Positions 24,668 through 41,688 are shown, counted from the first letter of the stretch. The stretch is 64,000 nucleotides of DNA from Gammaproteobacteria bacterium (GCA_965221985.1 OZ244928.1:535198-599197); one strand, 5' to 3'. The notes: a model not told the origin generated them from the letters alone. Translations and numbers: made by a program.

Positions 24668-24736
24668 GCAATATCGCAATATCAAGCCCAAGAACTCTGG
24701 CCCCCTCAAATACGGCCTTTCGATATCGATTAAATA

Positions 24737-24782: not shown

Positions 24783-24792
24783 TAATTAGAGC

Positions 24793-27076: not shown

Positions 27077-27130
27077 TTGAAAAGATGGTGGCCAGGGGCG
27101 GAATCGAACCACCGACACGCGGATTTTCAG
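27077..27130. repeat. attL: 54-bp direct repeat identical to the 3' end of tRNA-Phe plus 8 bp (copy of 41605-41658)
   Basis: GAAAAGATGGTGGCCAGGGGCGGAATCGAACCACCGACACGCGGATTTTCAGT is identical at both loci. Confidence 0.75.
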
Positions 27131-27132
27131 TT

Positions 27133-27250
27133 CGACCGGTGACCGCCCTAGGCTATATTTTTCAATAGGTTACCGGGACGTTCGTTGCGAATTTGCACCA
27201 CTTTGCGGGACTTTGCGGAGCTCACTTACGCAAAACTCCCGCGACAGCTA
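27133..27250. repeat. Island-end conserved segment of about 120 bp, with a second diverged copy at about 36540-36660
   Basis: cgaccggtgaccgccctaggctatatttttcaataggttaccgggacgttcgttgcgaatttgcaccactttgcgggactttgcggagctcacttacgcaaaactc, compared with the 36.5-kb copy. Confidence 0.6.
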
Positions 27251-27300
27251 TCCGGCCTTTTTGATATACAAGCCAAACTTCGATTCACGTTGAAACTACG

Positions 27301-27699
27301 TTGCAAGAAGAACCATTGGACATTGCTGGCCGAATTCGTGCCGCTCGCATGCGCGCACAAATGGAACCCGCCGCTCTTAGAGCTCGATTGCGGGAGTACG
27401 GGATTGACCTTTCCAAGACCGGCCTGCATCGTCTGGAAACGACAGAACCGAAGAATCCGAATCTCAAGCTCATCGAGGCTATCGCCGAGATCACGAACGT
27501 TTCGCCCGGTTGGATACTTTTCGGCAAGGGGCCCTCTGTCCCCGACTCTGAAGTAGGTTCGGCAATTCGTAGTCGCGTCATCGATACTATCGAGCTGATG
27601 GCTGGCGCACTCGACCTTACAGCGCGGCAGGAATCGACGTTACATAACTGGTTGAAGTCTGTCCGGACAACAAAGCCAAAACGAATCAAGAAACCTTAG
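27301..27699 (+). CDS. XRE/Cro-CI-type HTH transcriptional regulator
   Basis: The HTH IAGRIRAARMRAQMEPAALRARLREYGIDLSKTGLHRLE. Confidence 0.6.
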   Translation: MQEEPLDIAGRIRAARMRAQMEPAALRARLREYGIDLSKTGLHRLETTEPKNPNLKLIEAIAEITNVSPGWILFGKGPSVPDSEVGSAIRSRVIDTIELMAGALDLTARQESTLHNWLKSVRTTKPKRIKKP

Positions 27700-28031
27700 T
27701 CATTCAGACTCTGTTCACATTTTCGGAACGTTTGTTCACTTTAGCGGTTGACAGATCGCATTCTGTGCGTATACTCGCGCCCACTATGAATTACTTCATC
27801 CAACAACTCGGTTTATCAACCGCCGCCAAACGGCGCTGGCAGTTGTATGCCAACGTCGATGGGGACGGTGGCGCGCGCCTGTCCGGTATGAACGTCATAC
27901 CGGCGCATATCGCGTTTGACCGTTGTGATTCGCTCGCCACGAATAGTGGGGAACCGATGACTTAGCCTTCCTAAGAACATTTTCTCGGAAGGCTCGAATA
28001 TCGAACCTTCCAGGAAAGCTCCAACAAGAGA

Positions 28032-28066
28032 CCCCGGTCGGTTCACACCCACCGGGGTTTTTTTAT
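28032..28066 (+). terminator. Rho-independent terminator
   Basis: CCCCGGTcggttcacacccACCGGGG followed by TTTTTTTAT. Confidence 0.5.
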
Positions 28067-28187
28067 GTCCCGGCGGAACGCTCTTTAACAATGTGGATTG
28101 TGTAGACGTTGGGGCAGAGTCTTTCATCAGGAATGGCTGCGGCACTCAGACCCGGCTGCGCGCGCACGCGCCTGCCCCTACGATATT

Positions 28188-28264
<77 letters not shown>

Positions 28265-28270
28265 GTTTTC

Positions 28271-28355
28271 GGAGAGGTTTTCACTGGCAAGAAGCCCTGG
28301 CTGTAAACCAGGCGCCTAATGGGCTTTGTGGGTTCGACTCCTACCCTCTCCACCA
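28271..28355 (+). tRNA. tRNA-Tyr(GUA), long variable arm, CCA encoded
   Basis: Acceptor GGAGAGG/CCTCTCC. Anticodon stem CCTGG/CCAGG with loop CTGTAAA. T-loop GGTTCGACTCC. Confidence 0.8.
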
Positions 28356-28358
28356 AAT

Positions 28359-28434
28359 GGATCGGTAGCTCAATCGGTAGAGCGGTCGGCTGAAGACCGA
28401 CGCGTCGGTGGTTCAATTCCATCCCGGTCCACCA
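28359..28434 (+). tRNA. tRNA-Phe(GAA), CCA encoded (island copy, distinct from the attachment-site tRNA-Phe)
   Basis: Anticodon stem GTCGG/CCGAC with loop CTGAAGA. T-loop GGTTCAATTCC. Confidence 0.85.
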
Positions 28435-28435
28435 A

Positions 28436-28510
28436 TGGCATGTAGCTCAATGGTAGAGCGTCCGCCTGTTAAGCGGAAAGGTGTAGGTTCGAGTCCTACC
28501 GTGCCAGCCA
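28436..28510 (+). tRNA. tRNA-Asn(GUU), CCA encoded
   Basis: Anticodon stem TCCGC/GCGGA with loop CTGTTAA. T-loop GGTTCGAGTCC. Confidence 0.85.
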
Positions 28511-28516
28511 GATTCT

Positions 28517-28592
28517 GGGGGATTAGTTCAGTTGGTTGAACGTCGTCTTTGCAAGGCGAATGAGCGCGGTTCGAATCCGCGATCCTCCACCA
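28517..28592 (+). tRNA. tRNA-Ala(UGC), CCA encoded
   Basis: Acceptor GGGGGAT/ATCCTCC. Anticodon loop TTTGCAA. T-loop GGTTCGAATCC. Confidence 0.75.
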
Positions 28593-29065
28593 ATCCACGA
28601 CTATCGGCTTCGGCCGAGGTTGTGACTAGCGGCCTGGCGCTGCTAACCGTCGGCAACGGCGGGAAAGGAACGCTCCCATGGCGTTTCGCCGAAACTTAGG
28701 TTTCGGTCATTCCAGGCAAGTTCGGCCTCCCTTAGTTCTCGGCATTGCCGGGGATAGCGGCCAAGCGATGCGCGGAAGTAGTGCGACTGACGCACCGACT
28801 AACGTCGGGAATGCGGGTCCGCGAAAGAACACGTGGTGGTGCTACCCGCTACACCAACATCGTCAACCGTGAGAGGTAACGAATAGTGCAGGTAAGTGCG
28901 AGCTTTGCAGGCGAGTGCGACTGCGCAGAGGGCGAGGGTTCTGGCGTGCAGCCAGCGTCCTCGTCATCGGTCAAGTAACCGGCAGGTGAACGACATTCGG
29001 CGTGTTGTATTTCGTTGCCCAAAAGGCAACGAAGCGACTGAGGCGCGCACGTCGCAATGGGACTA

Positions 29066-29140
29066 GCGTTTTTAGCTCAGTGGTAGAGCTATCGACTTCT
29101 ACTCGATTGGTCGCGGGTTCGAATCCCGCATTACGCACCA
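29066..29140 (+). tRNA. tRNA-Arg(UCU)-like with two acceptor-stem mismatches. Possibly a pseudo or non-canonical tRNA
   Basis: D GCTCAGTGGTAGAGC. Anticodon stem ATCGA/TCGAT with loop CTTCTAC. T-arm GCGGGTTCGAATCCCGC. Acceptor GCGTTTT/ATTACGC with U-U at 5-68 and 6-67. Confidence 0.5.
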
Positions 29141-29492
29141 AACAGTAAACGCAAAGACGCGCCCCGGTACGTGTCGAAAGTGGCTTAAGGCCGAAGCCTT
29201 CGGGTAATTCGGCGGTTTGAACAGCCGCAAGCTGTTCTGACCTTGGCAGTGCGCCGCACGGTTGGGTAGCCCCCATTCAGAGCCTCGCAAGGCTCACGGT
29301 AAGCAAATTGCTGACTAGATGCGTACGACGAGTGAATCGCCTCACTCTGAAAAAGGCAGTCATGACTAACTACCGTCATGCCGGCGCAAGCCGGGTGGCG
29401 GTGGACACACGGGCAACTGTCGCCGTGCAGGCGGCAGGTACTCCCGCAAAAGGTTGGTCGCAAACGGCCTAGTCTCAGCCGTTTTCTATTTC

Positions 29493-29567
29493 GCTGCGGT
29501 AGCTCAATGGCAGAGCATCGGATTGTCGATCCGAAAGATGTCGGTTCAAGTCCGATTCGCAGCGCCA
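29493..29567 (+). tRNA. tRNA-Asp(GUC), CCA encoded
   Basis: Anticodon stem TCGGA/TCCGA with loop TTGTCGA. T-loop GGTTCAAGTCC. Confidence 0.85.
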
Positions 29568-29575
29568 GTTTCCAT

Positions 29576-29651
29576 GATCCGGTGGGCGAATGGTTAAGCC
29601 ACGAGGCCTTCAACCTCGTAATTGCAGGTTCGAATCCTGTCCGGATTACCA
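29576..29651 (+). tRNA. tRNA-Glu(UUC) with C33 in place of the universal U33, CCA encoded
   Basis: Anticodon stem CGAGG/CCTCG with loop CCTTCAA. T-loop GGTTCGAATCC. Acceptor GATCCGG/CCGGATT. Confidence 0.65.
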
Positions 29652-29726
29652 CACATGCGAGTTTGTACTACTCGCAATTCGATCGTCGCGAAGCGACTCA
29701 TTCTTAAACAGGCTCGAGGAGGACAC

Positions 29727-29954
29727 ATGAACATCAAAGATATTGTGAAAGACAACACCGTTCGATTTGTTCGGTATCGACAAGGAATCGCCTACTACGG
29801 CGTGAATGTACCAGCAGGCGGCGCGTATGTTTTCCCTGTTCCGCTCGAGGACATCGGTGACGCAACCCTTGAGCTCGAAGACAGAGCAATCATGTTTATG
29901 CGCTACATCAAACGCGCAATCAGCGACGGGTCATTTGTTCCTCTGGCGTCATGA
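29727..29954 (+). CDS. Small hypothetical protein (75 aa) embedded in the tRNA array
   Basis: Strong RBS GAGGAGGA 6 nt upstream of ATG 29727 (MNIKDIVKDNTVRFVRYRQGIAYYGVNVPAGGAY..). The track ORF 29622-29954 is a spurious N-terminal extension that runs through tRNA-Glu. Confidence 0.45.
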   Translation: MNIKDIVKDNTVRFVRYRQGIAYYGVNVPAGGAYVFPVPLEDIGDATLELEDRAIMFMRYIKRAISDGSFVPLAS

Positions 29955-29960
29955 CTTTGT

Positions 29961-30036
29961 AGACCGATAGCTCAGTGAGTAGAGCGCGCGACTGATATTC
30001 GCGAGGTCGGCTGTGCAACTCAGCCTCGGTCTACCA
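29961..30036 (+). tRNA. tRNA-Ile(GAU) with an atypical T-loop (TGCAACT), CCA encoded
   Basis: D GCTCAGTGAGTAGAGC. Anticodon stem CGCGA/TCGCG with loop CTGATAT. T-stem GGCTG/CAGCC. Confidence 0.6.
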
Positions 30037-30042
30037 CTTTTT

Positions 30043-30120
30043 CTGGAAGTAGCTCAGCCTGGTCAGAGTCCTCGGCTTGGAACCGAGATGCCGCTGGTTC
30101 GAATCCAGCCTTCCAGACCA
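30043..30120 (+). tRNA. tRNA-Pro(UGG), CCA encoded
   Basis: Acceptor CTGGAAG/CTTCCAG. Anticodon stem CTCGG/CCGAG with loop CTTGGAA. T-loop GGTTCGAATCC. Confidence 0.8.
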
Positions 30121-30128
30121 AATTCAAA

Positions 30129-30216
30129 GGAGACTCGCAAGGTCGGCGTGCTTATCCGGTTTGAACCCGGTGATGTCCTTACGGACGTGGGGGTTCGATC
30201 CCCTCAGTCTCCGCCA
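30129..30216 (+). tRNA. tRNA-Ser(UGA), long variable arm, CCA encoded
   Basis: Acceptor GGAGACT/AGTCTCC. Anticodon loop TTTGAAC. Variable-arm hairpin GTCCttacGGAC. T-loop GGTTCGATCCC. Confidence 0.7.
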
Positions 30217-30225
30217 ACAAACATT

Positions 30226-30301
30226 GGTGAATGTAGCTTAACGGCAAAGCCCCAGACCGTGAATCTGGTTGATATCGGTTCGAGTCCGTTCATTCACCCC
30301 A
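30226..30301 (+). tRNA. tRNA-His(GUG) with encoded G-1 and C33, CCA encoded
   Basis: An extra 5' G before acceptor GTGAATG/CATTCAC. Anticodon stem CCAGA/TCTGG with loop CCGTGAA. T-loop GGTTCGAGTCC. Confidence 0.7.
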
Positions 30302-30308
30302 ATCAACT

Positions 30309-30398
30309 GGAGAAGTGGCCGAGTGGCTTAAGGCACTCGTTTGCTAAACGAGAGGGGCGTGCCGTCCCACCCAGGTTCGAATCCTGGCTTCTCCGCCA
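30309..30398 (+). tRNA. tRNA-Ser(GCU), long variable arm, CCA encoded
   Basis: Acceptor GGAGAAG/CTTCTCC. Anticodon stem CTCGT/ACGAG with loop TTGCTAA. T-loop GGTTCGAATCC. Confidence 0.8.
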
Positions 30399-30401
30399 CA
30401 T

Positions 30402-30478
30402 CCGCCTGTAGCTCAGTTGGATAGAGCGGCTGGCTTCGAACCAGCAGGACGGGGGTTTGAGTCCCTCCAGGCGGTCCA
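30402..30478 (+). tRNA. tRNA-Arg(UCG), T-loop TTTGAGT, CCA encoded
   Basis: Acceptor CCGCCTG/CAGGCGG. D GCTCAGTTGGATAGAGC. Anticodon stem GCTGG/CCAGC with loop CTTCGAA. Confidence 0.7.
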
Positions 30479-30480
30479 CT

Positions 30481-30554
30481 CCGCTCTTGGCATAGTGGCT
30501 GTGCACCTGGCTTTTAACCAGGTGACGGGAGTTCGATTCTCTCAGGGCGGACCA
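30481..30554 (+). tRNA. tRNA-Lys(UUU), CCA encoded
   Basis: Anticodon stem CCTGG/CCAGG with loop CTTTTAA. T-loop GAGTTCGATTCTC. Confidence 0.75.
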
Positions 30555-30561
30555 ATTCAAT

Positions 30562-30637
30562 GCGGGCATAGCTCAATCGGTAGAGCACGACGGCGCCACC
30601 GTCGGGGTTGTGGATTCAATCTCCACTGCCCGCACCA
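30562..30637 (+). tRNA. tRNA-Gly(GCC) with C33, CCA encoded
   Basis: Acceptor GCGGGCA/TGCCCGC. D GCTCAATCGGTAGAGC. Anticodon stem CGACG/CGTCG with loop GCGCCAC. Confidence 0.65.
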
Positions 30638-30638
30638 A

Positions 30639-30709
30639 TGAGAGGGAGGCGGTCTCACGCGGGGCTCATAACCCCGCTTTCGCCGGTTCGAATCCGGCCC
30701 TCTCGACCA
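30639..30709 (+). tRNA. tRNA-Met-like (CAU) with a shortened D-arm. Possibly a non-canonical or pseudo-tRNA
   Basis: Acceptor TGAGAGG/CCTCTCG. Anticodon stem CGGGG/CCCCG with loop CTCATAA. T-arm GCCGGTTCGAATCCGGC with ACCA. Only about 11 nt lie between position 9 and the anticodon stem. Confidence 0.45.
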
Positions 30710-30712
30710 TGT

Positions 30713-30789
30713 TGTCCGATAGCTCAGTTGGTTAGAGCGCCGCTCTTACAAAGCGGAGGTCGTCGGTTCGAATCCGTCTCGGACTACCA
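30713..30789 (+). tRNA. tRNA-Val(UAC), CCA encoded, with a 1-72 mismatch
   Basis: D GCTCAGTTGGTTAGAGC. Anticodon stem CCGCT/AGCGG with loop CTTACAA. T-loop GGTTCGAATCC. Confidence 0.7.
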
Positions 30790-30898
30790 GGGTTGGGCAC
30801 GCGCGCGGTGTTCAGCGGTTCGGGTTTTGATCCCGTCTGGCACACTCACGCTCCCATCGCACGGTGTGTACCGAGCGTACCGTTAGCACTCAACCACC

Positions 30899-30975
30899 AC
30901 GGGAAATTAGCTCAGTGGGTAGAGCATCAGACCTGTAATCTGACTGTCGCAAGTTCGACTCTTGCATTTCCGCCA
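30899..30975 (+). tRNA. tRNA-Thr(UGU)-like with C33, a G1-G72 mismatch and no discriminator. Questionable functionality
   Basis: D GCTCAGTGGGTAGAGC. Anticodon stem TCAGA/TCTGA with loop CCTGTAA. T-arm GCAAGTTCGACTCTTGC. Confidence 0.4.
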
Positions 30976-31502
30976 ATGCCCTGTCACGGCATCAAGGCAA
31001 GGCTTCGGCCTGCGGTTCGAATCCGCTCCCGGGCGAGGATATCGCCCCACCCGTGTCCGTTGTCGGCAAAGACGTTCGACGATCCGCAAGGACGTCGAAC
31101 CTCCGAGCAGCACGACTGTTGCCGATCAGTGATCCGCCGCGTCGATCCTGCATGTCGCCCACGTCGCATCCGCCCGATACTCGCGAACGCTTTGGTGATC
31201 GCGGGCGAAAGCCGACGCCCCGTGCACGATGTGCCCGATTGGCCGGCGCCATCGATCTGCGGCACTCCTGTGACAGCGGACACACATATTCATACGATCG
31301 GGCCACAAGTGGCCCGGGCTCTCTAAACCATAGACGACAAAGGAGGTGATCCGAAGTGGCTGGTCTCAGTCGACTGGCAGAAGTAGAACGGCGCATTCAG
31401 GAGCAAAAGTCCAGCCACCAAGCGGCCCGACCTTTGCGCACTTTGCGTCCAAACCAACGACCGTCATTTGACGGAAACAACAACGAAGAAGGAGAACGCA
31501 CA

Positions 31503-32645
31503 ATGTGGTTCTACAACAAGTTCATCGTGCGCAAGCACGAACGCGGTCTCCTGTTTAAGGATGGAGACTTCATCAAGTTCGTGGCACCGGGAACATATCG
31601 TTACTTCAGCCTGCGTCGCCGCTACGCGGTTGAGCGCTTCGACCTGTCGGTCGCTGCGTTCGAACACCGCCTGGCCGACTATCTGGTTGAGGCCGAGCGC
31701 GCTGAGGTCGATCGCCTGTTTCACGTCGTTGAAACCAACGCCGATGAAGTAGCGCTGGTCTACCTCAACGAGCGTGCCTCGGCCGTGCTCGCACCGGCGG
31801 AGCGCAAGCTCTACTGGAAAGGTGTGGTCAAGGTTCGTGTTGAGCGCTTCGACCTCAATGAGGGCATTGCGCTTGATGCGCGCCTGACCAAGCGCCTTGT
31901 AAACGGCCGCGATGCGAAGGTACTCGCGGTTGTCGACAAGGCGGTCTACGCACGCATCGTACCCGACGGTCACGTAGGTCTGCTGTACGTGGATGGTGAA
32001 CTCACCGATACCCTGGCAGCCGGCCTGCATGCCTTTTGGAACGTTGCCCACGCCGTTGGCGTGGAGCTTGTGGACCTGCGTGTCAAAGCACTGGAAGTTC
32101 AAGGTCAGGAAATCCTGACCAAGGACAAAGTGGCACTGCGTATCAACGTAACCGCTACTTACCAGTACATTGACGCCGCCAAAGCCGTTCGCGCGGTCAA
32201 GGATCCGCTGGATCAACTATACAAAGAGATCCAGTTTGGTCTACGCGCGGCTGTGGGTACCCGCAAGCTGGATGCGCTGCTCGAGGATAAGACTGCGATC
32301 GACCGCGACATTGCGGATCACCTTGGCAAGCGTTTCGCTGAGATCGGCCTCAGCGTGATCAGCGTAGGCGTGAAAGACATCATCTTGCCCGGCGATATGA
32401 AAGACCTGCTGGGCAAGGTTGTTGAAGCCGAAAAAGCGGCACAAGCGAATGTTATTCGCCGCCGCGAAGAGACAAACGCAACTCGCTCGCTGCTGAACAC
32501 CGCGAAAGTGATGGAAAGCAACAACGTAGCTCTGCGTCTCAAAGAGCTGGAGACTCTCGAGAAGATCACCGAAAACGTAGGCGATCTATCTGTCGTGGGT
32601 GGTCTCGACGCTCTGCTGAATGGACTGGTAAACATCAAGTCTTGA
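31503..32645 (+). CDS. SPFH/band-7 (stomatin-prohibitin-flotillin-HflKC, slipin-like) domain protein
   Basis: KDKVALRINVTATYQYIDAAKAVRAV..DPLDQLYKEIQFGLRAAVGTRKLDALLEDK..IDRDI..FAEIGLSVISVGVKDIILPGDMKDLLGKVVEAEKAAQANVIRRREETNA. An alternative GTG start at 31356 is preceded by a perfect anti-16S SD (AAGGAGGTGATC). Confidence 0.8.
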   Translation: MWFYNKFIVRKHERGLLFKDGDFIKFVAPGTYRYFSLRRRYAVERFDLSVAAFEHRLADYLVEAERAEVDRLFHVVETNADEVALVYLNERASAVLAPAERKLYWKGVVKVRVERFDLNEGIALDARLTKRLVNGRDAKVLAVVDKAVYARIVPDGHVGLLYVDGELTDTLAAGLHAFWNVAHAVGVELVDLRVKALEVQGQEILTKDKVALRINVTATYQYIDAAKAVRAVKDPLDQLYKEIQFGLRAAVGTRKLDALLEDKTAIDRDIADHLGKRFAEIGLSVISVGVKDIILPGDMKDLLGKVVEAEKAAQANVIRRREETNATRSLLNTAKVMESNNVALRLKELETLEKITENVGDLSVVGGLDALLNGLVNIKS

Positions 32646-32652
32646 TTCAGCA

Positions 32653-32690
32653 CCGGGAGGGTGTGCAACGCGCCCTCCCAACTTTTTCTA
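32653..32690 (+). terminator. Rho-independent terminator after the SPFH gene
   Basis: GGGAGGGtgtgcaacgcgCCCTCCC followed by AACTTTTTCT. Confidence 0.6.
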
Positions 32691-32691
32691 C

Positions 32692-32768
32692 ACGGCTGTA
32701 GCTCAGCGGATTAGAGCGCGACTCTGCGAAGGTCGAGGTCACAGGTTCGAATCCTGTCAGCTGTACCA
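32692..32768 (+). tRNA. tRNA-Arg(GCG), an unusual anticodon for bacteria, CCA encoded
   Basis: D GCTCAGCGGATTAGAGC. Anticodon stem CGACT/GGTCG with loop CTGCGAA. T-loop GGTTCGAATCC. Confidence 0.6.
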
Positions 32769-32776
32769 ATTACTAT

Positions 32777-32850
32777 TCGGCGCTCGTCCAATGGCAGGAT
32801 GCGAGACTTTGAATCTCGAGATCGTGGTTCGAGTCCACGGCGCCGAGCCA
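32777..32850 (+). tRNA. tRNA-Gln(UUG), CCA encoded
   Basis: Acceptor TCGGCGC/GCGCCGA. Anticodon stem CGAGA/TCTCG with loop CTTTGAA. T-loop GGTTCGAGTCC. Confidence 0.8.
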
Positions 32851-32857
32851 GGACAAA

Positions 32858-32931
32858 TGGTCAGTCGTCTAATGGTAGGACTGCGGCTTCCAAACCCGCT
32901 AATCGGCGTTCGAATCGTCGCTGGCCAGCCA
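32858..32931 (+). tRNA. tRNA-Trp(CCA), CCA encoded
   Basis: Acceptor TGGTCAG/CTGGCCA. Anticodon loop TTCCAAA. T-loop GCGTTCGAATCGTC. Confidence 0.7.
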
Positions 32932-32934
32932 CTT

Positions 32935-33008
32935 CATGCCGTGGCCGAACGGTTAGGCGCGAGGTTGCAACCCTCGTCATCTCGGTTCAAGTCCGAGCGG
33001 CATGTCCA
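32935..33008 (+). tRNA. tRNA-Cys(GCA), CCA encoded
   Basis: Acceptor CATGCCG/CGGCATG. Anticodon stem CGAGG/CCTCG with loop TTGCAAC. T-loop GGTTCAAGTCC. Confidence 0.75.
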
Positions 33009-33012
33009 ACTC

Positions 33013-33091
33013 TCCCCAGTAGCTCAGCCAGGTGTAGAGCAACCGTCTTATATGCGGTTGGTCGCTGGTTCAATTCCAGCCTGGGGGACCA
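33013..33091 (+). tRNA. tRNA-Ile(UAU)? A rare AUA-decoding anticodon. CCA encoded
   Basis: D GCTCAGCCAGGTGTAGAGC. Anticodon stem ACCGT/GCGGT with loop CTTATAT. T-loop GGTTCAATTCC. Confidence 0.55.
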
Positions 33092-33092
33092 A

Positions 33093-33170
33093 ACCCTCGT
33101 AGCTCAATGGATCCAGAGCACCGAGCTTCTACCTCGGGTGTTGCAGGTTCGAGTCCTGCCGAGGGTGCCA
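33093..33170 (+). tRNA. tRNA-Arg(UCU), CCA encoded
   Basis: Acceptor ACCCTCG/CGAGGGT. Anticodon stem CCGAG/CTCGG with loop CTTCTAC. T-loop GGTTCGAGTCC. Confidence 0.8.
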
Positions 33171-33178
33171 ACAACTAA

Positions 33179-33257
33179 GGCCGTCTGACGGGAACTAGGC
33201 ATACCTACCTGTCTTAGAAACAGGTGTTTCTCGGTTCGACTCCGAGGGCGGCTACCA
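33179..33257 (+). tRNA. Non-canonical tRNA-Leu(UAG)-like: short variable arm and an atypical D-arm. CCA encoded
   Basis: Anticodon stem CCTGT/ACAGG with loop CTTAGAA. T-arm CTCGGTTCGACTCCGAG. D-region TGACGGGAACTAGGCATACCT has no clear 4-bp D-stem. Confidence 0.5.
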
Positions 33258-33262
33258 ACATT

Positions 33263-33340
33263 GCGGATCTGAAGGGAACAGGCATACCTCGATGGCTTAA
33301 AACCATTGGCATCCCGGTTCGATTCCGGGGGTCCGCACCA
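33263..33340 (+). tRNA. Non-canonical tRNA-Leu(UAA)-like, CCA encoded
   Basis: Acceptor GCGGATC/GGTCCGC. Anticodon stem GATGG/CCATT with loop CTTAAAA. T-arm CCCGGTTCGATTCCGGG. D-region TGAAGGGAACAGGCATACCT. Confidence 0.5.
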
Positions 33341-33341
33341 C

Positions 33342-33419
33342 GCGCAGGTGACGGGAACGGCATACCTGGGTAGCTCAAAACTACTTGCTTCCGCGTTCGA
33401 ATCGCGGGCTGCGCACCAA
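33342..33419 (+). tRNA. Non-canonical tRNA-Leu(CAA)-like, CCA encoded
   Basis: Anticodon stem GGTAG/CTACT with loop CTCAAAA. T-arm CCGCGTTCGAATCGCGG. D-region TGACGGGAACGGCATACCT. Confidence 0.5.
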
Positions 33420-33423
33420 CTAC

Positions 33424-33502
33424 GCGGATCTGAAGGGAATTGGTTATACCTCGGTGGCTCAGACCCACCGGCATCCCGGTTCGACTCCGGGGGTCCGTAC
33501 CA
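33424..33502 (+). tRNA. Non-canonical tRNA-Leu(CAG)-like, CCA encoded
   Basis: Anticodon stem GGTGG/CCACC with loop CTCAGAC. T-arm CCCGGTTCGACTCCGGG. D-region TGAAGGGAATTGGTTATACCT. Confidence 0.5.
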
Positions 33503-33506
33503 AATC

Positions 33507-34115
33507 ATGTCTACACAATTCGCATTGTCACTACGAGAAATGACGATGACCGAAAGGATTCTAAAACTGGATGTAGGCGGACGACCGATTGCGTGGATTA
33601 CGCGCGAGGACGGTGCCCTACTGTACTGCCGCGAACAGGTAGCGTGGGAGGCTGGAGTTGAAGAGATCATTCTTCGTGGCGGCTACTCACGGCGCACTGG
33701 TCTTCGGTCAGTCCTGCGTGTGAATTCTATCGTCGCAACAACCGCGGTAGACAAGGGCGCGGACGACTGGTCCGGTACTCCGGCGCTAACCAATCCGCGC
33801 CTTTTCCGTCGAGACGACTACATGTGTCTCTACTGCGGTGAGGCTCTGCCGCCAAGGTTACTCACCCGCGATCACGTGATTCCTCTGTCAGCAGGCGGTC
33901 AGGACACCTGGGAAAACGTTGTGTCGGCATGCCGGCCCTGCAATCACAGGAAAGACAACCACTCGCTGGAAGTCATTGGAATGCGACTCCTGGCTGTGCC
34001 CTATGCACCGAACCGTGCCGAGGGCCTGATCCTGGAAAACCGCCGCATTCTGACGGACCAGATGGAGTTCCTGCGATCACGCGTCGGCTCAGGCAGCCGG
34101 CTGCGTGTACCATAA
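33507..34115 (+). CDS. HNH endonuclease
   Basis: CLYCGEALPPRLLTRDHVIPLSAGGQDTWENVVSACRPCNHRKDNH. The track ORF 33306-34115 is an N-terminal extension that reads through the upstream tRNAs. The start was chosen at the first ATG after the array. Confidence 0.75.
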   Translation: MSTQFALSLREMTMTERILKLDVGGRPIAWITREDGALLYCREQVAWEAGVEEIILRGGYSRRTGLRSVLRVNSIVATTAVDKGADDWSGTPALTNPRLFRRDDYMCLYCGEALPPRLLTRDHVIPLSAGGQDTWENVVSACRPCNHRKDNHSLEVIGMRLLAVPYAPNRAEGLILENRRILTDQMEFLRSRVGSGSRLRVP

Positions 34116-35543
34116 ATGGACAAGGACAAGACAATGTCATTTTTGCAAGAAGTACAGAAAGTATCGGATGCACACTACGTGCTACCAAAGATCGGTGACA
34201 TGCGCACTGAGGTGCACGCGTACCTGTCCGAAGCTCTGTTTGCGCAAACCGATGAAGCGCTGTGGCGTCAGGCCGCACAGGCGGCCGCCTACCCAGGCAT
34301 GATTGGCCTTTACTTGATGCCTGACACACACCTGGGCTACGGCATCCCGGTCGGCGGCGTTGCCGTGACCGAAGACGTCATCATCCAGGCCGGCAGCGGT
34401 TACGATATTTCATGCGGTGTCGTGTACCTGAAGGTGCCAAACCTGACGGCTGCAGATGTCGCCGACTGGGACAAGCGTCGCCGCTGGATCTATGAAGTCG
34501 AGCTGCGCATCGCGACTGGTATCGGTAGCGATCGTCCGAAACACATGCCTCGCATTGCGGACACCAAGATCGAGGACATCTTTCGCTATGGTGCGCAGGC
34601 CATCGGCGTGCATGCGGACGTTTGCGAACGTCAGTACATCGACGTGGACGAACAAGTGCTGGATACCGATCGTATCGAGCGTGCTCGCAACAAGGCGGGG
34701 CCACAGATTGGTTCGGTCGGTGGCGGCAACCACTTCGTGGAAATGCAGGTCGACGTCAACGACGGTTCGGTCTGGGTGATGATTCACTGTGGCAGTCGTG
34801 GTTACGGCTGGCAAACGGCGAACCATTACTTCTATGAAGGTGCGGCGCTGCGCGGCCTAGCGAAGAATCGTCGCGAGGAGTCGTGGCTCCGCGCAGACGA
34901 GCTCTTGGGCCGCGAATACTGGGCCCACCACAACTCGGCAGCGAACTATGCCGTGGCGAATCGTCACATCATCGTTCGTGGTGTGCAAAAAGCACTTGAG
35001 AACGTCTTCAATGCAACCGGTGAGGTCTTCTACGAGATCTCGCACAACCTGGTGCAGGAAGAGACGCTTGTGCTGCCGGACGGCACTACCAAGAAGGGAT
35101 TCGTCCACCGAAAGGGCGCGACCCGCGCATTTCCGGCGGGACACCCTGACCTGGTGGGCACAAAGTGGGAAGACACGGGTCATCCATGCCTTGTGCCAGG
35201 CTCAATGCTAGACGGTGCGGCCATCCTTTACCCGTTGAAGGGTGCGTACCAGTCAGGTTGCTCTGTGAACCATGGTTCCGGACGTGTGATGGCGCGTGGC
35301 CAGGCCAAGCGTGAGCTGGCCGAGCTGCATGACGATATCGACGCCGAAATGCGCCACATCAAGCGTACGCTGGGTGGCGTAGAGGTAGAAGGCATCGTCG
35401 GCAACACACGGCGCACGCCGCTGGATGAGTGCGGCCACGTCTACAAGGATTTGGACGAGGTACTGCGCGTGCTGGAGACAGAAGGCATTGCTCGCGTAGC
35501 AAACCGAATGTACCCAGTGGCCAATATTAAGGGCACCGATTGA
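34116..35543 (+). CDS. rtcB: RtcB-family RNA 3'-phosphate ligase (tRNA-splicing/repair ligase)
   Basis: GGGNHFVEMQV, HCGSRGYG and VNHGSGRVMARG, with a length of 475 aa. Confidence 0.85.
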   Translation: MDKDKTMSFLQEVQKVSDAHYVLPKIGDMRTEVHAYLSEALFAQTDEALWRQAAQAAAYPGMIGLYLMPDTHLGYGIPVGGVAVTEDVIIQAGSGYDISCGVVYLKVPNLTAADVADWDKRRRWIYEVELRIATGIGSDRPKHMPRIADTKIEDIFRYGAQAIGVHADVCERQYIDVDEQVLDTDRIERARNKAGPQIGSVGGGNHFVEMQVDVNDGSVWVMIHCGSRGYGWQTANHYFYEGAALRGLAKNRREESWLRADELLGREYWAHHNSAANYAVANRHIIVRGVQKALENVFNATGEVFYEISHNLVQEETLVLPDGTTKKGFVHRKGATRAFPAGHPDLVGTKWEDTGHPCLVPGSMLDGAAILYPLKGAYQSGCSVNHGSGRVMARGQAKRELAELHDDIDAEMRHIKRTLGGVEVEGIVGNTRRTPLDECGHVYKDLDEVLRVLETEGIARVANRMYPVANIKGTD

Positions 35544-35559
35544 GGTGCCCCTCTTTTTT
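35526..35559 (+). terminator. Rho-independent terminator overlapping the rtcB stop codon
   Basis: GGGCACCgattgaGGTGCCC followed by CTCTTTTTT. Confidence 0.6.
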
Positions 35560-35570
35560 GGAAACTGGTC

Positions 35571-36497
35571 ATGCAGCTGGTTGAAGCCAAGGAGATCATA
35601 GAGTGTCTGCCGAGGAGTAAAACGCGGTTTTACTACTTCAAGGACCGGTATGCGTTGTTGTTGCTGAGTCTAGTTACCCGCAATCACGCATCGAAAAAGG
35701 ATCTCCGCACGACGCGCTTTGCCAAACTTCTCGAAAAGGATGTTGTCCGGGAAGCGCTTAGTCAGTCTCGTGGAGAAGAGCTGACTGCCGAAGTCTTCGA
35801 CACTGTATGGCCGGTACGTTATGAGTGCTACTTCCTCACGCTAGCGATTTGGGGATCAAAGAACAGAGATTCCTGGTATCAAACCTCACGCCGAGGTTTC
35901 AATCTCGTTCTCCAACTCAACTTCTCGTCAGAACACGACGAACCGTATAAGAGGCTTGTGGATCCAAATGACGCTCGCCCGTTTGAGTATGGTGGGCATC
36001 CTGTCGCGGACGGTCGTTTCCACACGCTTGCCTGGGCGCGACTGGACATCGATCTTGCGAACGACGAGGCACTCATTGAGGAAGTACAAAACGACTGGAT
36101 AAGGGAGGCACTATGGGCACGGCGAGTTGCCGTACGAGAACAAGGTCCGATTTACTATTGGGGGTCAAAGGTTGAGAACGACCGGGTAATCCGCTACGTC
36201 GATAACGTGCTACGGCAACACGAGGGCATCTGGCACGAAGCGACGCTCTCTGCGGCAATCTGGTTTTTGCGTTGCGAGATAGGCGTGAGGAACATCTACT
36301 ACCACACCTATGAATCCGGCGCGCGCTTAAAGTCGATTCAGTACAGCATGCCGCCGCGGTCAGTTTATTCCAGGCTTCCGCGGCGATTCTGTTTCAAAGA
36401 GACGGACGAAGTGCCTAGATTCTTGGCTATGAATAGTAGATCTCGAGTTTGGCAGCAGCAGCTGGATCAGGCACGTTTCTTTGAGATCAGGCTGTAG
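35571..36497 (+). CDS. Hypothetical protein, the last gene of the tRNA-array/RtcB module
   Basis: A 308-aa ORF with no recognised motif. Same strand and tightly spaced after rtcB. Confidence 0.5.
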   Translation: MQLVEAKEIIECLPRSKTRFYYFKDRYALLLLSLVTRNHASKKDLRTTRFAKLLEKDVVREALSQSRGEELTAEVFDTVWPVRYECYFLTLAIWGSKNRDSWYQTSRRGFNLVLQLNFSSEHDEPYKRLVDPNDARPFEYGGHPVADGRFHTLAWARLDIDLANDEALIEEVQNDWIREALWARRVAVREQGPIYYWGSKVENDRVIRYVDNVLRQHEGIWHEATLSAAIWFLRCEIGVRNIYYHTYESGARLKSIQYSMPPRSVYSRLPRRFCFKETDEVPRFLAMNSRSRVWQQQLDQARFFEIRL

Positions 36498-36660
36498 GGG
36501 AGAGACAGGGGGCAAATTCGATACGCGGACACGGGGATTTTCCGTTCGATCGGTGACTGCCCTAGGCTATATTTTTCAATAGTCTACTGGGACGTTCGTT
36601 TCGAATTCGTACTACTTTGCGGGACTTTGCATAGCCCATCTACGCAAAACTCACGAACGC
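36497..36660. repeat. Degenerate internal copy of attL plus the island-end segment (diverged tRNA-Phe 3' remnant followed by a 120-bp conserved block)
   Basis: gggggcaaattcgatacgcggacacggggattttccgttcgatcggtgactgccctaggctatatttttcaatag.., compared with 27087-27250. Confidence 0.55.
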
Positions 36661-37100
36661 TTGCCGAGGTCGACATGACATCGGCATACAAGGTCACAAA
36701 TGACGAATCGAAGTCCTTCTCGCTGACACGAGCTTCGTTCAGAACCAATGGTCAAAACGCTATTTCTATCGGGCACCGGCGTCGTGGTGGGCCTGAGGGA
36801 ATGAGTATCAACCCACTGGCGGCGGCGGCAACGGTGGTGTCAACAAGCGAATAACCCATTGCCGCCCGCTACGACCGACTCAAGAGAAGACGTCGGGTTG
36901 CATGCGTGCCTCGGATGGAACTGGCACACCACGGTGCATGGCCGATACCTTTACGAGCCGAAACAAGATTGCGCTCAATCAAGTAGTTGACCGCAGGATT
37001 AACGCGCCTTGGTCAATGAGCTGGGGCGCGAGAGTCACCTGCACAACACCGATGACCTGGAACCCGGCGAGTGGTTTATCGACTACGAGCTCGCCGTTTC

Positions 37101-37613
37101 TTAGTCGGCATCCAAGCGCAGTAAGCCCAGCTTGACCAGGCGAATAGTCATCGCCTGTTCGCTGACTTCAAAGCGCAACGCCAGTAACGCGATGTCCAAG
37201 TCCGACAGCGAGTCGTTGGGCACGGCACTGCGCACCATGTCTTCCGGCATGAGTAGCTCAGCGGCAAAACGATTCGCTTGGATTTCCTGAATATCAGTGC
37301 CTGCTCCGGCAACGGCACCACGCTGAAACGCTTGATCGACGAACAGCTGGTCGTCACCTTCTTTGCAATGCAGGAAATAGTGACCGCACTCGTGGGCCGC
37401 CGTAAAACGTTGTCGGTTCGGATGGTGCGTGCTGTTGATCGCGATCGTGGCTTGGCCGTCCTCGATCAGCAGCAATCCGGAATCGGCATCGTCCATGTCT
37501 TCGAAAGCGAGATTGATGTCTCGCTCTTCAATAATGCGAAACACGTTTACGGCAGGCACGGTGACTTTATGTGCACGCAATAGCTCCGAAACTTCGGCTA
37601 AGTCACTCATCAT
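37101..37613 (-). CDS. ImmA/IrrE family metallo-endopeptidase
   Basis: The HEXXH motif in TAAHECGHYFLH. Confidence 0.75.
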   Translation of the reverse strand: MMSDLAEVSELLRAHKVTVPAVNVFRIIEERDINLAFEDMDDADSGLLLIEDGQATIAINSTHHPNRQRFTAAHECGHYFLHCKEGDDQLFVDQAFQRGAVAGAGTDIQEIQANRFAAELLMPEDMVRSAVPNDSLSDLDIALLALRFEVSEQAMTIRLVKLGLLRLDAD

Positions 37614-37646
37614 TCACTCCAATGGTCGGGCGCGGAGGAAGCACCG

Positions 37647-38381
37647 CTATGCTCGTTTCAACCGCAAACTCTTAATGACGGTAGCGGTCTTATCGCCACT
37701 CACGCGGTGTACGGTGTCGCCAACTTCGACTGACGTCGAGTCCTCGGCGAAGACGGACTCGAGGTTCGGCAGAACGTCATCCAGGTCAATGCCGAAAAAA
37801 TCACACACGCGATAGATAACGAAAGCCTGCGTATGTTTGCGATACACCTTCAATGCCCGGATACGTGTCGCATCGTCGATCGCCGTGTATTGGAACCGCT
37901 TGATCCGTCGGCCTGCTTTATCTCTAAAAAATAGGAACTTGACGTCAACTTGCACCTGATGGCCGGGGACGGTCTTTTCGTAGCGTTTGAAGGTGCTGGG
38001 CGATCGTTTAGGCGCTCCCGCAGGAAGACGACTCAAGCCGTTTCGCTTCAGCACTCCGAAAATGCCAGTTGGAGATACTTTCATGCCGTAGTAACGCTGC
38101 AGGTACCAGCTAATTCTCAGTTGCCCCAGGCCGAACTCACGTCGGATGTAGAGGATCTTTTCCTCGACGTCTTTCGGTACTCGGATTTTGGGATTCTCCG
38201 GACAAGGCTTCGAGTTGATCAGCGCCTCAGGTCCGCCTGTTTCGAACTGCTTCTTCCAACGATAAAAGCTATCTCGAGAAACACCGTATTTACGGCACGT
38301 ATGGCTGACATTTCCTGATTGTTTGGCGTGTTCAAGCACCTTCGTTTTTCGACGAATATCGGCTTCTGCTTGTCGATTCAT
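37647..38381 (-). pseudogene. IS481-family transposase, truncated (N-terminal HTH plus the start of the DDE core)
   Basis: The N-terminus ..GNVSHTCRKYGVSRDSFYRWKKQFE..GHQVQVDVKF..QYTAIDDATR parallels the intact transposase at 56495-57535, then diverges after about 200 aa. Only 244 aa. Confidence 0.6.
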
Positions 38382-38390
38382 TGTTCCCTC

Positions 38391-38426
38391 CTGACAGGTT
38401 CATTGATTCTAGAATGAACTGTCAGG
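38391..38426. repeat. Perfect 12-bp inverted repeat CTGACAGGTTCAT/ATGAACTGTCAG at the terminus of the truncated IS copy
   Basis: ctgacaggttcattgattctagaatgaactgtcagg. The CTGACA motif is shared with the ends of the intact IS. Confidence 0.5.
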
Positions 38427-38489
38427 CAAGGTCGGGAGTTTCAGAAGTAGTATCTGCGAAATAGACGCTACTTCAGGTACTCGAAGCAT

Positions 38490-38876
38490 TCATGGATCTG
38501 CCGTTGATGGCTTCCAGAGCACGAATGAGTTGTCGCTCGTGCAACCCATAGCCTCGATTATCTTGTTGTTATCGAGATCTGGAAATTGGGTCTGCAGTTC
38601 TTGAAGCAACCCAACCCGTTCGGCTGCCTCGTGCGAGACTACACATCCATCTGTGTCCGACGTTTTGAAGACGAACAACACGTCCTCGGCAAATGGCCCA
38701 TCGCTAGTAGTAACAATTCCGATTTCAGAGATGTCGGACCAACGGACCTCGATTCGCGAGTGCCCATCAATCTGCACGATGCCATCGTCGTTCAACTCCG
38801 TGGTTTCTCGTTCGCGCTTTATCACAAACGGTGCCAAGACGACGACGAATGCGATTCCGCCAAGAACCAACGGCAA
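38490..38876 (-). CDS. Hypothetical protein with an N-terminal TM helix
   Basis: A 128-aa ORF. Confidence 0.3.
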   Translation of the reverse strand: MPLVLGGIAFVVVLAPFVIKRERETTELNDDGIVQIDGHSRIEVRWSDISEIGIVTTSDGPFAEDVLFVFKTSDTDGCVVSHEAAERVGLLQELQTQFPDLDNNKIIEAMGCTSDNSFVLWKPSTADP

Positions 38877-39142
38877 TATCCATGATGCCGCTCCGGCTGC
38901 CGCTTTGTAGGCCAGATACGCGGCCGGTAGCCCGAATACGGCAACCTAAAACCATGCTATCGGCCTTCTCGGAAGAGGATCACCAATTGCCGTCATTTTC
39001 GATTGAACAACCAATTCATTCCAAACCTATAACTGTCCGGGCTATTCGCGGAATGGGTTCCGCCTTCGATTGTGGCTGTCTTGATTGCCCACGGAGCATC
39101 GTCACGATCTTCCCAAGCCGCAAACCACTCAAGCGCAGCTTC

Positions 39143-39853
39143 TCATAGTCGCGGCATGTCGTGTGTGCCGCTGGTCACTACTAGACCCAAGTCCGTACGG
39201 GTTGATTGCTCAGCCTTGGAGAAGAACATTTCACGCCCTGGATCAAACGTCGGATTGCTGGCGATTCGGCCCCAAAACAGATCCGGGTCGACGAAAGCCG
39301 AGTAGAGCACCATGTGGCCGCCTCTGCTTTGTCCGAAAAGAACACGACGGGTTGAGTCGGCCAGATACCGCGTTTCCACTTCTGGCAGAAGCTCCGATTG
39401 CAGGAAGGACAGAAACAACGGTGCTCCGCCTTGTTCGCTCGTCGCGTCCGAAGCTGGCGCGGAAAAGTCGAATCCGCGCTTATTCGTTGCCGGATCAAAA
39501 GAACCGTAAGCGATCCCGACAATAATCGCCTTCGGCAAGTCTTCGTCGAGACTTAGAAACAAGTGATTGCCTGCCAGAATTGGAAACAGCGAATCTCCGT
39601 CGAGCAGATAGATGACCGTATACTTAAGACTCTCAGATGGATCATATCCTTCCGGCAAACTCACGTAGATATGAAACGGCCGCCCAACGAAACGAGAGTC
39701 GAGCTTAAAATAGTCGCCAGAAATTGCGGGCAAATGATCGAGCGGAACGGTCGATTTGGAATGGACTATCGACGGTGGCGCTTCAGATCGACACCCGAGA
39801 AGGACCAACAAGGCCAATAGCAAAATGGAGAATTGATACGTTGGTCTATGCAA
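39143..39853 (-). CDS. Alpha/beta hydrolase, putative esterase family (secreted)
   Basis: Signal peptide, then the nucleophile elbow GQSRGG (GxSxG) and YLLDGDS. Confidence 0.65.
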   Translation of the reverse strand: MHRPTYQFSILLLALLVLLGCRSEAPPSIVHSKSTVPLDHLPAISGDYFKLDSRFVGRPFHIYVSLPEGYDPSESLKYTVIYLLDGDSLFPILAGNHLFLSLDEDLPKAIIVGIAYGSFDPATNKRGFDFSAPASDATSEQGGAPLFLSFLQSELLPEVETRYLADSTRRVLFGQSRGGHMVLYSAFVDPDLFWGRIASNPTFDPGREMFFSKAEQSTRTDLGLVVTSGTHDMPRL

Positions 39854-40237
39854 TCGCGATCACCACCGGAATCTGTCGGTTAGTGTCCCAGCTGACAAGT
39901 CGGCTATTCGAAAATAGTCTGTATCAGTCCGTCTCAATCAACGGATTAACTCTACCGTACTGGAGTTATTTTTGTTGCAAATCTCGATTTGAGAAATTAT
40001 AAAGTAGTCGTTCTGCGATTTTCCGCGAATTATTTAAGAGTCGACTAGCAACTACAAAGACTCGGATCGACAAAGCGTCGATGCCCCTCGGGCTAACAAC
40101 GCCCGTGACCCCAGTTCCAATCTCGGAACATCCTTGTCGCGAATCACTCGCGACCGAAAATATCTGGCAGCAACTTTTTTTAGCGCTTCTTTTCCGCAGG
40201 CGGAAACTTCGCTTGCGTCTGGATTTTGGAGGTCTAC

Positions 40238-40603
40238 ATGGGAAATAAACCGAGCATCATTCCGCCGCGGCTCATACGGTTCCGCGACGCGCCCAGCTAT
40301 CTGGGCATGGACCGGAATCGGTTCAACAAAGAGATCCGGCCCTACCTAACCGAGGTGAGGGTCGGTGTACAAGGCAGGGCATTTGACCGGCTTGAACTGG
40401 ACGACATGGCAGAGCAGTATATTGCTTGCAACGGACGTCCCGGTCGACTCAAAGGAGAACGACTATGGGACGAAAACGAACGCCCGGCCTCGTCAAGAAA
40501 GGCGAAGTCTGGCACATCGACAAACGTATCGAAGGGCAACGGGTTTGCGTCAGTTGTGGCACAACTCGACTTGAAGAAGCGGAGCGATTCCTCTCAAAAC
40601 TAA
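40238..40603 (+). CDS. Putative AlpA/excisionase-like DNA-binding protein
   Basis: RLIRFRDAPSYLGMDRNRFNKEIRPYLTEVRVG resembles AlpA-family HTH proteins. Immediately upstream of the integrase, and overlapping it. Confidence 0.35.
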   Translation: MGNKPSIIPPRLIRFRDAPSYLGMDRNRFNKEIRPYLTEVRVGVQGRAFDRLELDDMAEQYIACNGRPGRLKGERLWDENERPASSRKAKSGTSTNVSKGNGFASVVAQLDLKKRSDSSQN

Positions 40604-41547: not shown

Positions 41548-41604
41548 CTCGCGCAAAATTCACGAAAAGGGTTGAGAGAAAAACTTGGATACGACGCAAG
41601 TCGT

Positions 41605-41688
<84 letters not shown>

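Follow-up and report, generated by a model that had tools for sequence, protein, structure and literature searches.

A 64,000-nt stretch of Gammaproteobacteria bacterium DNA (GCA_965221985.1 OZ244928.1:535198-599197; hereafter the window, with all positions counted from its first letter) carries a tRNA array that is interleaved with genes encoding an SPFH/Band-7 protein, an HNH endonuclease, an RtcB RNA ligase, and a 308-residue protein of an unannotated family. Our best reading, to which we assign a probability of roughly 0.6, is that an integrative island carries the region as its cargo and joins a tRNA array of the L-array type to a Band-7/SPFH-RtcB RNA-repair system. On comparative grounds, we hold with about the same confidence that the island would serve as a mobile kit for supplying and repairing translation RNAs, with the array providing a fresh tRNA pool and RtcB standing at the center of repair. 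We infer every activity discussed below from anatomy, conservation, and genomic context, which are themselves observed. Most of this combination has precedent, including L-arrays with HNH and rtcB genes, a predicted Band-7/RtcB/tRNA-like repair system, GOLLD RNA in tRNA arrays, and the Anabaena TrcR regulon. The 308-residue family and a structured RNA upstream of the SPFH gene appear to be undescribed in the databases and literature searched, with Burroughs & Aravind 2016 compared through papers that cite it. The very strong and conserved ribosome-binding site of the SPFH gene is a further point of interest. No report in the searched literature joined "tRNA array" with "SPFH."

Anatomy of the array and its interleaved genes

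All four open reading frames (ORFs) lie on the plus strand together with the tRNAs (Table 1), as the original prediction, made from the sequence alone, had described. The Pfam search proposed there returned Band_7 (94.8 bits), HNH/HNH_5 (47-52 bits), and RtcB (293 bits), and gave no match for the ORF at 35571-36497. Other details of that description required revision. The place directly after the last tRNA, first assigned to RtcB, is held by the HNH gene, and the RtcB start codon directly abuts the HNH stop codon (34115). The terminators predicted at 32653 and 35526 correspond to hairpins followed by T-runs; the second of these separates RtcB from the 308-residue protein, which thus falls outside the bracket that the two were thought to form. 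The cargo also reaches far past the limits first drawn for the module. A perfect 55-bp direct repeat, one copy of which overlaps the host tRNA-Phe gene, and a tyrosine integrase adjoining that gene together identify the module as cargo of an integrative island of ~14.5 kb inserted at host tRNA-Phe.

ARAGORN detected 28 plus-strand tRNAs in two blocks, or 29 with an atypical tRNA-Met(CAT), all within 5.3 kb. The array shows three properties by which L-arrays are recognized: more than 20 tightly spaced, same-strand tRNAs covering most amino acids; a horizontal origin on a mobile element, evident from the attachment (att) repeats, the integrase, and syntenic arrays in unrelated taxa; and a linked HNH gene, which is likewise present in 12 of 16 related arrays. 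On a fourth property of L-arrays, silence in normal conditions and induction by translational stress, the one feature seen in the sequence is a promoter-like site at 27748-27775. The complete spare tRNA set that had been proposed holds only conditionally, as all 20 amino acids are covered if the low-scoring tRNA-Met(CAT) is counted. This gene (30639-30709) was matched by Rfam in a permissive scan (30639-30706, 36 bits) and is reported by ARAGORN at relaxed settings only; it has a stunted D-arm and an initiator-like GGGG/CCCC anticodon stem. By sequence inspection, 28 of the 29 tRNAs encode the 3' CCA. The sole exception, tRNA-Thr(TGT) at 30901-30974, directly precedes the structured RNA upstream of the SPFH gene. 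Four tRNA-Leu genes stand in a row at 33179-33502 on the plus strand (anticodons TAG, TAA, CAA, and CAG); their variable loops are short and their D-loops large, as would befit class I tRNAs, and they carry A73. The Rfam tRNA model misses all four. Related arrays preserve the order of the second block, with Arg(GCG) first and Leu last, and in them too the Leu run precedes the HNH gene.

Within the first tRNA block lies a GOLLD RNA, which matched RF02032 over the full model (positions 1-416) and, at 154.9 bits, exceeded the gathering score of 150 (E=2.7e-42). A tRNA-Arg(TCT) gene (29066-29140) is embedded in its linker. GOLLD is known to occur in tRNA arrays (PMC6582537; PMC12286853), and a second example was found in an array of Microbulbifer flavimaris (related locus L053, 5906-6378; 185 bits).

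Related arrays have homologues of the HNH protein, with 45-90% identity, at the corresponding place. The ligase is an RtcB of the long archaeal/human type. It aligned with Pyrococcus horikoshii RtcB (4dwr/1uc2; 183 bits) such that the Cys, Asn-His, and His metal/guanylylation motifs correspond, including the histidine of NHGSGR, and its catalytic motifs are intact as judged from this alignment.

The SPFH gene lies 1.5 kb upstream of RtcB on the same strand, in keeping with the Band-7 partner expected of a Band-7/RtcB system. Its placement between the tRNA blocks was predicted correctly; its start was not, as translation most likely begins at GTG 31356 rather than ATG 31503. This assignment follows from the invariant AAAGGAGGTGATCC upstream of the GTG and from the in-frame continuation of the upstream ORF into SPFH in nine of 11 loci (the window and 10 relatives), which gives proteins of 428-436 residues. 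ATG 31503 is a conserved internal Met codon with its own Shine-Dalgarno sequence, and a 380-residue form initiated there is possible; database gene calls for homologues are split between 380 and 428-430 residues. AAAGGAGGTGATCC is fully complementary to the terminal ~13 nt at the 3' end of 16S rRNA. The sequence AAGGAGGTGAT occurs 13 times in 1.34 Mb of related loci, 11 of these upstream of SPFH genes, and once in the window; its distance to the conserved internal Met is 158-182 nt in ten loci and 65 nt in a locus bearing a deletion (L006).

The 429-residue SPFH protein consists of a basic N-terminal tail of 49 residues, the Band_7 core, and a long C-terminal helix. Its AlphaFold2 model is confident for the core and the helix only, with a predicted local distance difference test (pLDDT) score below 50 for the N-terminal 160 residues. 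Databases label homologues "slipin family" by homology only. Membrane SPFH proteins of the slipin/stomatin type have an N-terminal membrane anchor, whereas no membrane segment was found in the window protein (Kyte-Doolittle 19-residue maximum, 1.47), which marks it as soluble rather than as a membrane slipin. Membrane segments were likewise absent from HNH, RtcB, and the 308-residue protein.

The ~370 nt between the first tRNA block and the SPFH Shine-Dalgarno sequence are conserved and contain a structured RNA of ~340 nt. It opens with a minihelix resembling a tRNA T-arm (31008-31034), in which GCGGTTCGAATCCGC is invariant; an extended, irregular rod follows (31053-31283), and then a hairpin on the 3' side (31298-31317). 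RNAalifold, applied to an alignment of 11 loci, predicted 68 pairs, 40 of which show compensatory changes. Paired cells amounted to 88% in this alignment, compared with 33-43% when the partners were slid, and the covariation score of 0.483 (~0.1 in controls) was reached by none of 500 shuffles. An nhmmer search placed this RNA upstream of SPFH genes only, and an Rfam scan matched no family to it.

Table 1. Features of the island and its ends in the window.
Feature	Position	Strand	Description	Basis
tRNA block 1	28188-30974	+	19 genes including atypical tRNA-Met(CAT)	ARAGORN, Rfam
GOLLD RNA	28995-29481	+	within tRNA block 1	Rfam RF02032
Conserved structured RNA	30977-31317	+	~340 nt, upstream of SPFH	
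"Super" Shine-Dalgarno sequence AAAGGAGGTGATCC	31338-31351	+	13-14 nt, invariant in 11 loci	
SPFH/Band-7 ("slipin") gene	31356-32645	+	429 aa from GTG 31356	PF01145, 94.8 bits
Terminator-like hairpin after SPFH	32655-32679	+	11-bp stem, 8 GC pairs, then T-run	
tRNA block 2	32692-33502	+	10 genes, Arg(GCG) first, four tRNA-Leu last	ARAGORN
HNH endonuclease gene	33507-34115	+	202 aa; alternative starts 33540, 33546	Pfam HNH/HNH_5, PHROG HNH families
RtcB RNA ligase gene	34116-35543	+	long archaeal/human type	PF01139, 293 bits
Terminator-like hairpin	35531-35550	+	7-bp stem, then T-run; overlaps RtcB stop codon; the 308-aa gene follows after 20 nt	
308-aa protein gene	35571-36497	+	unannotated family, predicted GNAT-like core fold	
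Island	27132-41603		~14.5 kb, between att repeats	
Distal att repeat	27077-27131		repeats the last 46 nt of tRNA-Phe (3' end) and 9 nt more; left island end	
Proximal att repeat	41604-41658	-	inside host tRNA-Phe(GAA) gene (41613-41688)	ARAGORN, repeat
Tyrosine integrase gene	40426-41547	+	adjoins tRNA-Phe	PF00589, 60 bits
Weak XRE-type helix-turn-helix (HTH) ORF	27301-27699	+	just upstream of the promoter-like site	below Pfam cut-offs
Candidate sigma-70 promoter of array	27748-27775	+	TTGACA-16-TATACT; putative	11/12 consensus matches
Peptidase_M78/IrrE-like gene	37101-37613	-		Pfam
HTH protein gene	37647-38381	-		Pfam

Genomic contexts and fold of the 308-residue family

A scan of a genome collection for the 308-residue protein retrieved 314 relatives, the best 80 of which were examined as loci (designated by L-numbers). 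We defined array loci as those with a same-strand run of at least five tRNAs near the family member. Arrays were found at 16 of these 80 loci, SPFH genes at 21, and HNH genes at 18. RtcB of any clade lay within about three genes at 39 loci, and 31 of these had no array. By our estimate, the chance of a random gene falling within three genes of RtcB is far below 1%. Proximity so far above chance argues that the 308-residue protein is an accessory of RtcB or RNA repair. The family adjoins RtcB in at least four repair-system architectures, including those with PrfH, those with Ro60/Hen1/Pnkp, and those with tRNA-SPFH-RtcB. Examples include RtcB-PrfH-308-residue protein at seven Desulfobacterota loci; Ro60/TROVE-308-residue protein-RtcB-Hen1-Pnkp (L038 and L047); simple pairs with RtcB in Microbulbifer, Hahella, and Thiotrichaceae; and minimal versions consisting of tRNA-Met(CAT), SPFH, RtcB, and the family member (L059 and L064). 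In Hyphomicrobiales, the gene adjoins an RsmB/F methyltransferase.

The array loci share one layout: a tRNA block, SPFH, a second tRNA block (often with Arg(GCG) first and Leu last), HNH, an optional RtcB, and the 308-residue protein. RtcB is absent from eight of the 16, and the long RtcB clade is found in four only. The gene order of the window recurs in at least 16 other genomes from diverse taxa, which shows that the arrangement is not due to chance. Both order and strand are kept across deeply diverged loci, with SPFH identities ranging from 42 to 98%.

The histories of the individual genes differ. Between the window and L005, synonymous divergence (dS) amounts to 0.30 in SPFH, reaches 0.94 in RtcB, and is saturated in the 308-residue protein. 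At L005, L002, and L007, SPFH and RtcB are 88-98% identical to the window proteins, compared with 54-64% for the 308-residue protein. These unequal values indicate that the module is a mosaic in which the alleles of the 308-residue protein are much older or have been swapped; they appear to be either swapped or fast-evolving. Severalfold differences in dS between neighboring genes, together with an RtcB found in some arrays only, are what loose co-transfer would produce, in which the four proteins are unrelated passengers of a mobile tRNA array with no joint function. We regard this as very improbable in view of the conserved order and strand, the independent recurrence of RtcB-308-residue protein and SPFH-RtcB links outside arrays, and the co-regulation of the same families in Anabaena despite their scattered positions in that genome.

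The family itself has more than 800 unnamed homologues of ~307 residues, forms 829 clusters at 50% identity, and displays no domain fusions. The window protein gave no match in Pfam, PHROGs, NCBIfam, or PADLOC. Across 32 members, Pfam and NCBIfam returned nothing at E<=1, and hmmsearch against PDB sequences returned nothing at E<=10. Its AlphaFold2 model (pLDDT, 90.2; predicted template modeling score, 0.91) has a GNAT-like core fold, and Foldseek against PDB and BFVD leaned in this direction too, though weakly. No sequence profile connects the protein with a GNAT or any other family. Numerous invariant polar residues (H122, H143, R157, D159, E170, E171, Q173, D175, H245, and K254) suggest that the protein is an enzyme. 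The motif with which GNATs bind the pyrophosphate of acetyl-CoA, Q/R-x-x-G-x-G/A, follows strand beta4. At the predicted beta4/alpha3 junction, the 308-residue protein has an invariant and glycine-free E170-E171-x-Q173-x-D175-W176, with H245...G250...K254 after a later strand; no canonical acetyl-CoA loop was evident.

GNAT-fold toxins that acetylate aminoacyl-tRNA (TacT/AtaT) exist, which lends some interest to a selfish or addiction module in which the HNH or 308-residue protein is the toxin, and the array and RtcB form the antidote that stabilizes the island. The high divergence of the 308-residue alleles (dS saturated against 0.30 for SPFH), as in conflict genes, and the translational juxtaposition of HNH and RtcB fit such a module, as does the conservation of HNH with arrays (PMC8421152). 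We nevertheless judge it quite unlikely. TacT/AtaT toxins have ~170 residues, acetyltransferase profiles, and a small antitoxin; the window protein has 308 residues, no evident acetyl-CoA motif, no match to acetyltransferase, PADLOC, or toxin-family profiles, and no apparent small antitoxin-like partner gene. Genuine repair systems (PrfH, Pnkp/Hen1, and Ro60), none of them a toxin-antitoxin module, accompany its family, and family members and HNH genes are also found apart. The toxin-like stabilizing role floated in the original prediction found no positive evidence, as PADLOC gave generic HNH matches alone.

Relation to known systems and viral relatives

The gene combination was first thought to match no named system. 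It fits a union of L-arrays with the Band-7/RtcB/b7a-tRNA system, the latter as outlined in papers citing its prediction. L-arrays spread by horizontal transfer and have HNH and rtcB genes linked to them; in Anabaena, translational stress induces them (PMC8421152). There, TrcR represses the trn array, RtcB (77-fold derepressed), the HNH gene all8564, the slipin gene alr0740 with the co-transcribed hypothetical gene alr0739, and two GNAT genes (PMC10272220). The window and the Anabaena L-array have in common more than 20 same-strand, horizontally spread tRNAs, a linked HNH, and an rtcB that is nearby or co-regulated, and the TrcR regulon likewise contains slipin/SPFH and GNAT genes. In Anabaena, however, these functions are scattered, whereas the window fuses all of them in one 14.5-kb tRNA-Phe island of a Gram-negative host that is probably a gammaproteobacterium. 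No TrcR-type ribbon-helix-helix repressor was identified in the island, and, unlike the Anabaena GNAT genes, the 308-residue protein resembles no annotated GNAT in sequence. With the UNK-RtcB neighborhood (UNK being the 308-residue family) and the co-traveling SPFH, HNH, and arrays, co-induction in Anabaena provides the comparative backing for the repair-or-replacement role originally proposed.

Burroughs & Aravind 2016 predicted an RtcB/Band-7/"b7a-tRNA" repair system analogous to Ro60/Y RNA, as recounted in later papers (10.1101/312249; PMC6514570). To the extent that these accounts describe it, the system resembles the window in its pairing of RtcB with a neighboring Band-7 protein and, as a possible further parallel, with an RNA that is tRNA-like; the minimal arrangements at L059 and L064 are of this kind. 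It differs in that a 29-tRNA array replaces or joins the single tRNA-like gene, and in that the SPFH gene of the window is preceded by a ~340-nt RNA whose likeness to tRNA is confined to the T-arm-like minihelix. In the window, tRNAs stand on both sides of SPFH and a T-arm-mimic RNA ahead of it; this structured RNA may correspond to, or extend, the predicted b7a-tRNA. An SPFH protein of Pseudomonas aeruginosa, PaFlo8, is encoded in an rtc locus (PMC13086221).

Mycobacterium tRNA arrays (PMC6582537; Morgado et al. 2020 via PMC12286853) share ~30 tRNAs, a GOLLD with an embedded tRNA, HNH, and a horizontal origin; they belong to another phylum, and the available accounts do not report SPFH, RtcB, or the 308-residue family there. 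The RtcB-PrfH and Ro60-RtcB-Hen1-Pnkp operons (PMC6514570; 10.1101/312249) are connected to the window by the 308-residue family, which is inserted in L012-L016, L034, L036, and L044 for the former and in L038 and L047 for the latter. In contrast to these operons, the window lacks PrfH, Ro60, Hen1, and Pnkp, and its RtcB falls in the long archaeal-type clade, being 21-31% identical to theirs. Relative to rtcBA-rtcR of Escherichia coli and Salmonella, the conserved motifs imply that the RtcB ligase chemistry would be the same, but RtcA and RtcR were found neither in the island nor beside viral relatives. Specifically, neither the RtcA cyclase nor the sigma-54 activator RtcR domain was detected in any island ORF scanned.

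Viral relatives of this RtcB clade (60-74% identical) were found on 12 IMG/VR contigs, many of 130-435 kb. The original prediction had considered that the clade might generally occur in an RtcA/RtcR context without arrays. The phage-contig relatives instead lie outside RtcA/RtcR operons, and no RtcA, RtcR, or archease was found near them; their neighbors include Tpt1/KptA, SpoU, Thg1, L/F-transferase, tRNA-binding, and cyclic-phosphate-receiver genes. The anticipated linkage of RtcB to tRNA arrays was recovered in part: two loci (L096 and L097) have 15-16 tRNAs and HNH, and at nine of the 12 no tRNA gene lies closer than 10 kb. A further viral contig of 94 kb (L083, IMG/VR UViG_3300007072_000340) bears 36 tRNAs, an embedded HNH, and a terminal SPFH gene. 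All three of these phage versions (L083, L096, and L097) are without the 308-residue protein.

Such contigs raise the prospect that the region is a phage-derived translation booster or anti-defense cassette, i.e., the remnant or satellite of a phage module rather than a host stress system, which would sustain phage translation by matching codon usage and by escaping host tRNA-cleaving defenses. GOLLD is typically carried by phage or prophage (PMC12286853), and the array tRNA-Phe is identical to the host copy at 61 of 76 positions and has an unlike anticodon loop (G37 in the array, A37 in the host). Still, this origin seems unlikely. The island spans only 14.5 kb, no phage structural or replication gene was detected among its scanned ORFs, and tblastn and pattern searches did not find the 308-residue family in INPHARED phages, PLSDB plasmids, or IMG/VR. 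Megablast of positions 27500-37000 yielded no match in the phage collection and a mere 52-bp tRNA-like match among plasmids.

Several observations weigh against an island that both replenishes and repairs translation RNAs. No RtcB, SPFH, or array lies near the 308-residue protein at 29 of the 80 loci. The lack of RtcB in half of the array loci, with the long clade in four only, implies that ligation by a linked enzyme is not strictly required, and, given the four atypical tRNA-Leu genes and tRNA-Met, not all array tRNAs may be decoded normally. Besides the window, GOLLD reached the gathering score in one of 14 related array-type loci scanned (L053). In Anabaena, deletion of the array or of rtcB in a trcR background left the tested antibiotic phenotypes unchanged (PMC10272220).

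Genes flanking the island encode TonB-dependent receptors and AsmA, which identifies the host as Gram-negative, and among the relatives listed, the closest to the island genes come from Woeseiaceae and other Gammaproteobacteria. The Peptidase_M78/IrrE-like gene, the HTH gene, and the XRE-type ORF are possible regulators of the island or array. Just beyond the left att repeat, a lower-GC stretch (23798-26169, plus strand) holds two genes, one CoiA_N-like and the other of the DUF222-HNH ("13E12-type") kind; a different mobile element that used this hotspot may have left them behind. To the right of tRNA-Phe (41870-44178, plus strand), an FGE-sulfatase/DinB_2 gene and a Methyltransf_33 gene look like EgtB/EgtD of ergothioneine synthesis; both are host genes with no relation to the island.

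A proposed mechanism and its significance

For the combined tRNA-supply and RNA-repair island that we favor, a sequence of events can be proposed. The trigger would be damage to translation RNAs or a block in translation, such as anticodon nucleases, ribotoxins, or antibiotics that target ribosomes can inflict. Transcription of the array into long precursors, followed by their processing, would then supply fresh tRNAs of divergent sequence, and RtcB would reseal breaks with 2',3'-cyclic-phosphate and 5'-OH ends in tRNA or rRNA. The soluble SPFH protein, produced from its exceptionally strong ribosome-binding site, could act as an oligomeric scaffold with the partly tRNA-like upstream RNA, a pairing that would parallel Ro60 and Y RNA. 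The 308-residue protein would be an accessory enzyme of RtcB-centered repair, most likely acylating or otherwise modifying an RNA end, an aminoacyl-tRNA, or a protein partner. HNH may either propagate the array by homing or help to process or cleave nucleic acid. The island would spread through integrase-mediated insertion, with its parts shuffled between arrays.

A bolder proposal, which we consider a long shot, is that the SPFH protein (from a cage-forming family), the ~340-nt RNA, the GOLLD nanocage RNA, RtcB, and the 308-residue protein assemble into a vault-like ribonucleoprotein compartment. Such a compartment could sequester, repair, or re-charge tRNAs under attack. The 308-residue family could then be a new RNA-end- or aminoacyl-tRNA-modifying enzyme common to most RtcB repair systems, and the 13-nt anti-16S sequence could, beyond its role as a ribosome-binding site, also tether or splint 16S rRNAs whose 3' ends are damaged.

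What tRNA arrays, GOLLD RNA, bacterial RtcB, and soluble SPFH proteins do is in each case unsettled, and the island holds all of them in 14.5 kb with defined ends, along with two uncharacterized parts, the widespread 308-residue family and the SPFH-upstream RNA. Because every part lies between these ends, the whole island could be transferred to a model host for dissection. If the repair-and-replacement role is correct, the island would represent a transferable mechanism of resistance against tRNA-targeting toxins and defenses, and a role would be assigned to a 308-residue family that no database names.

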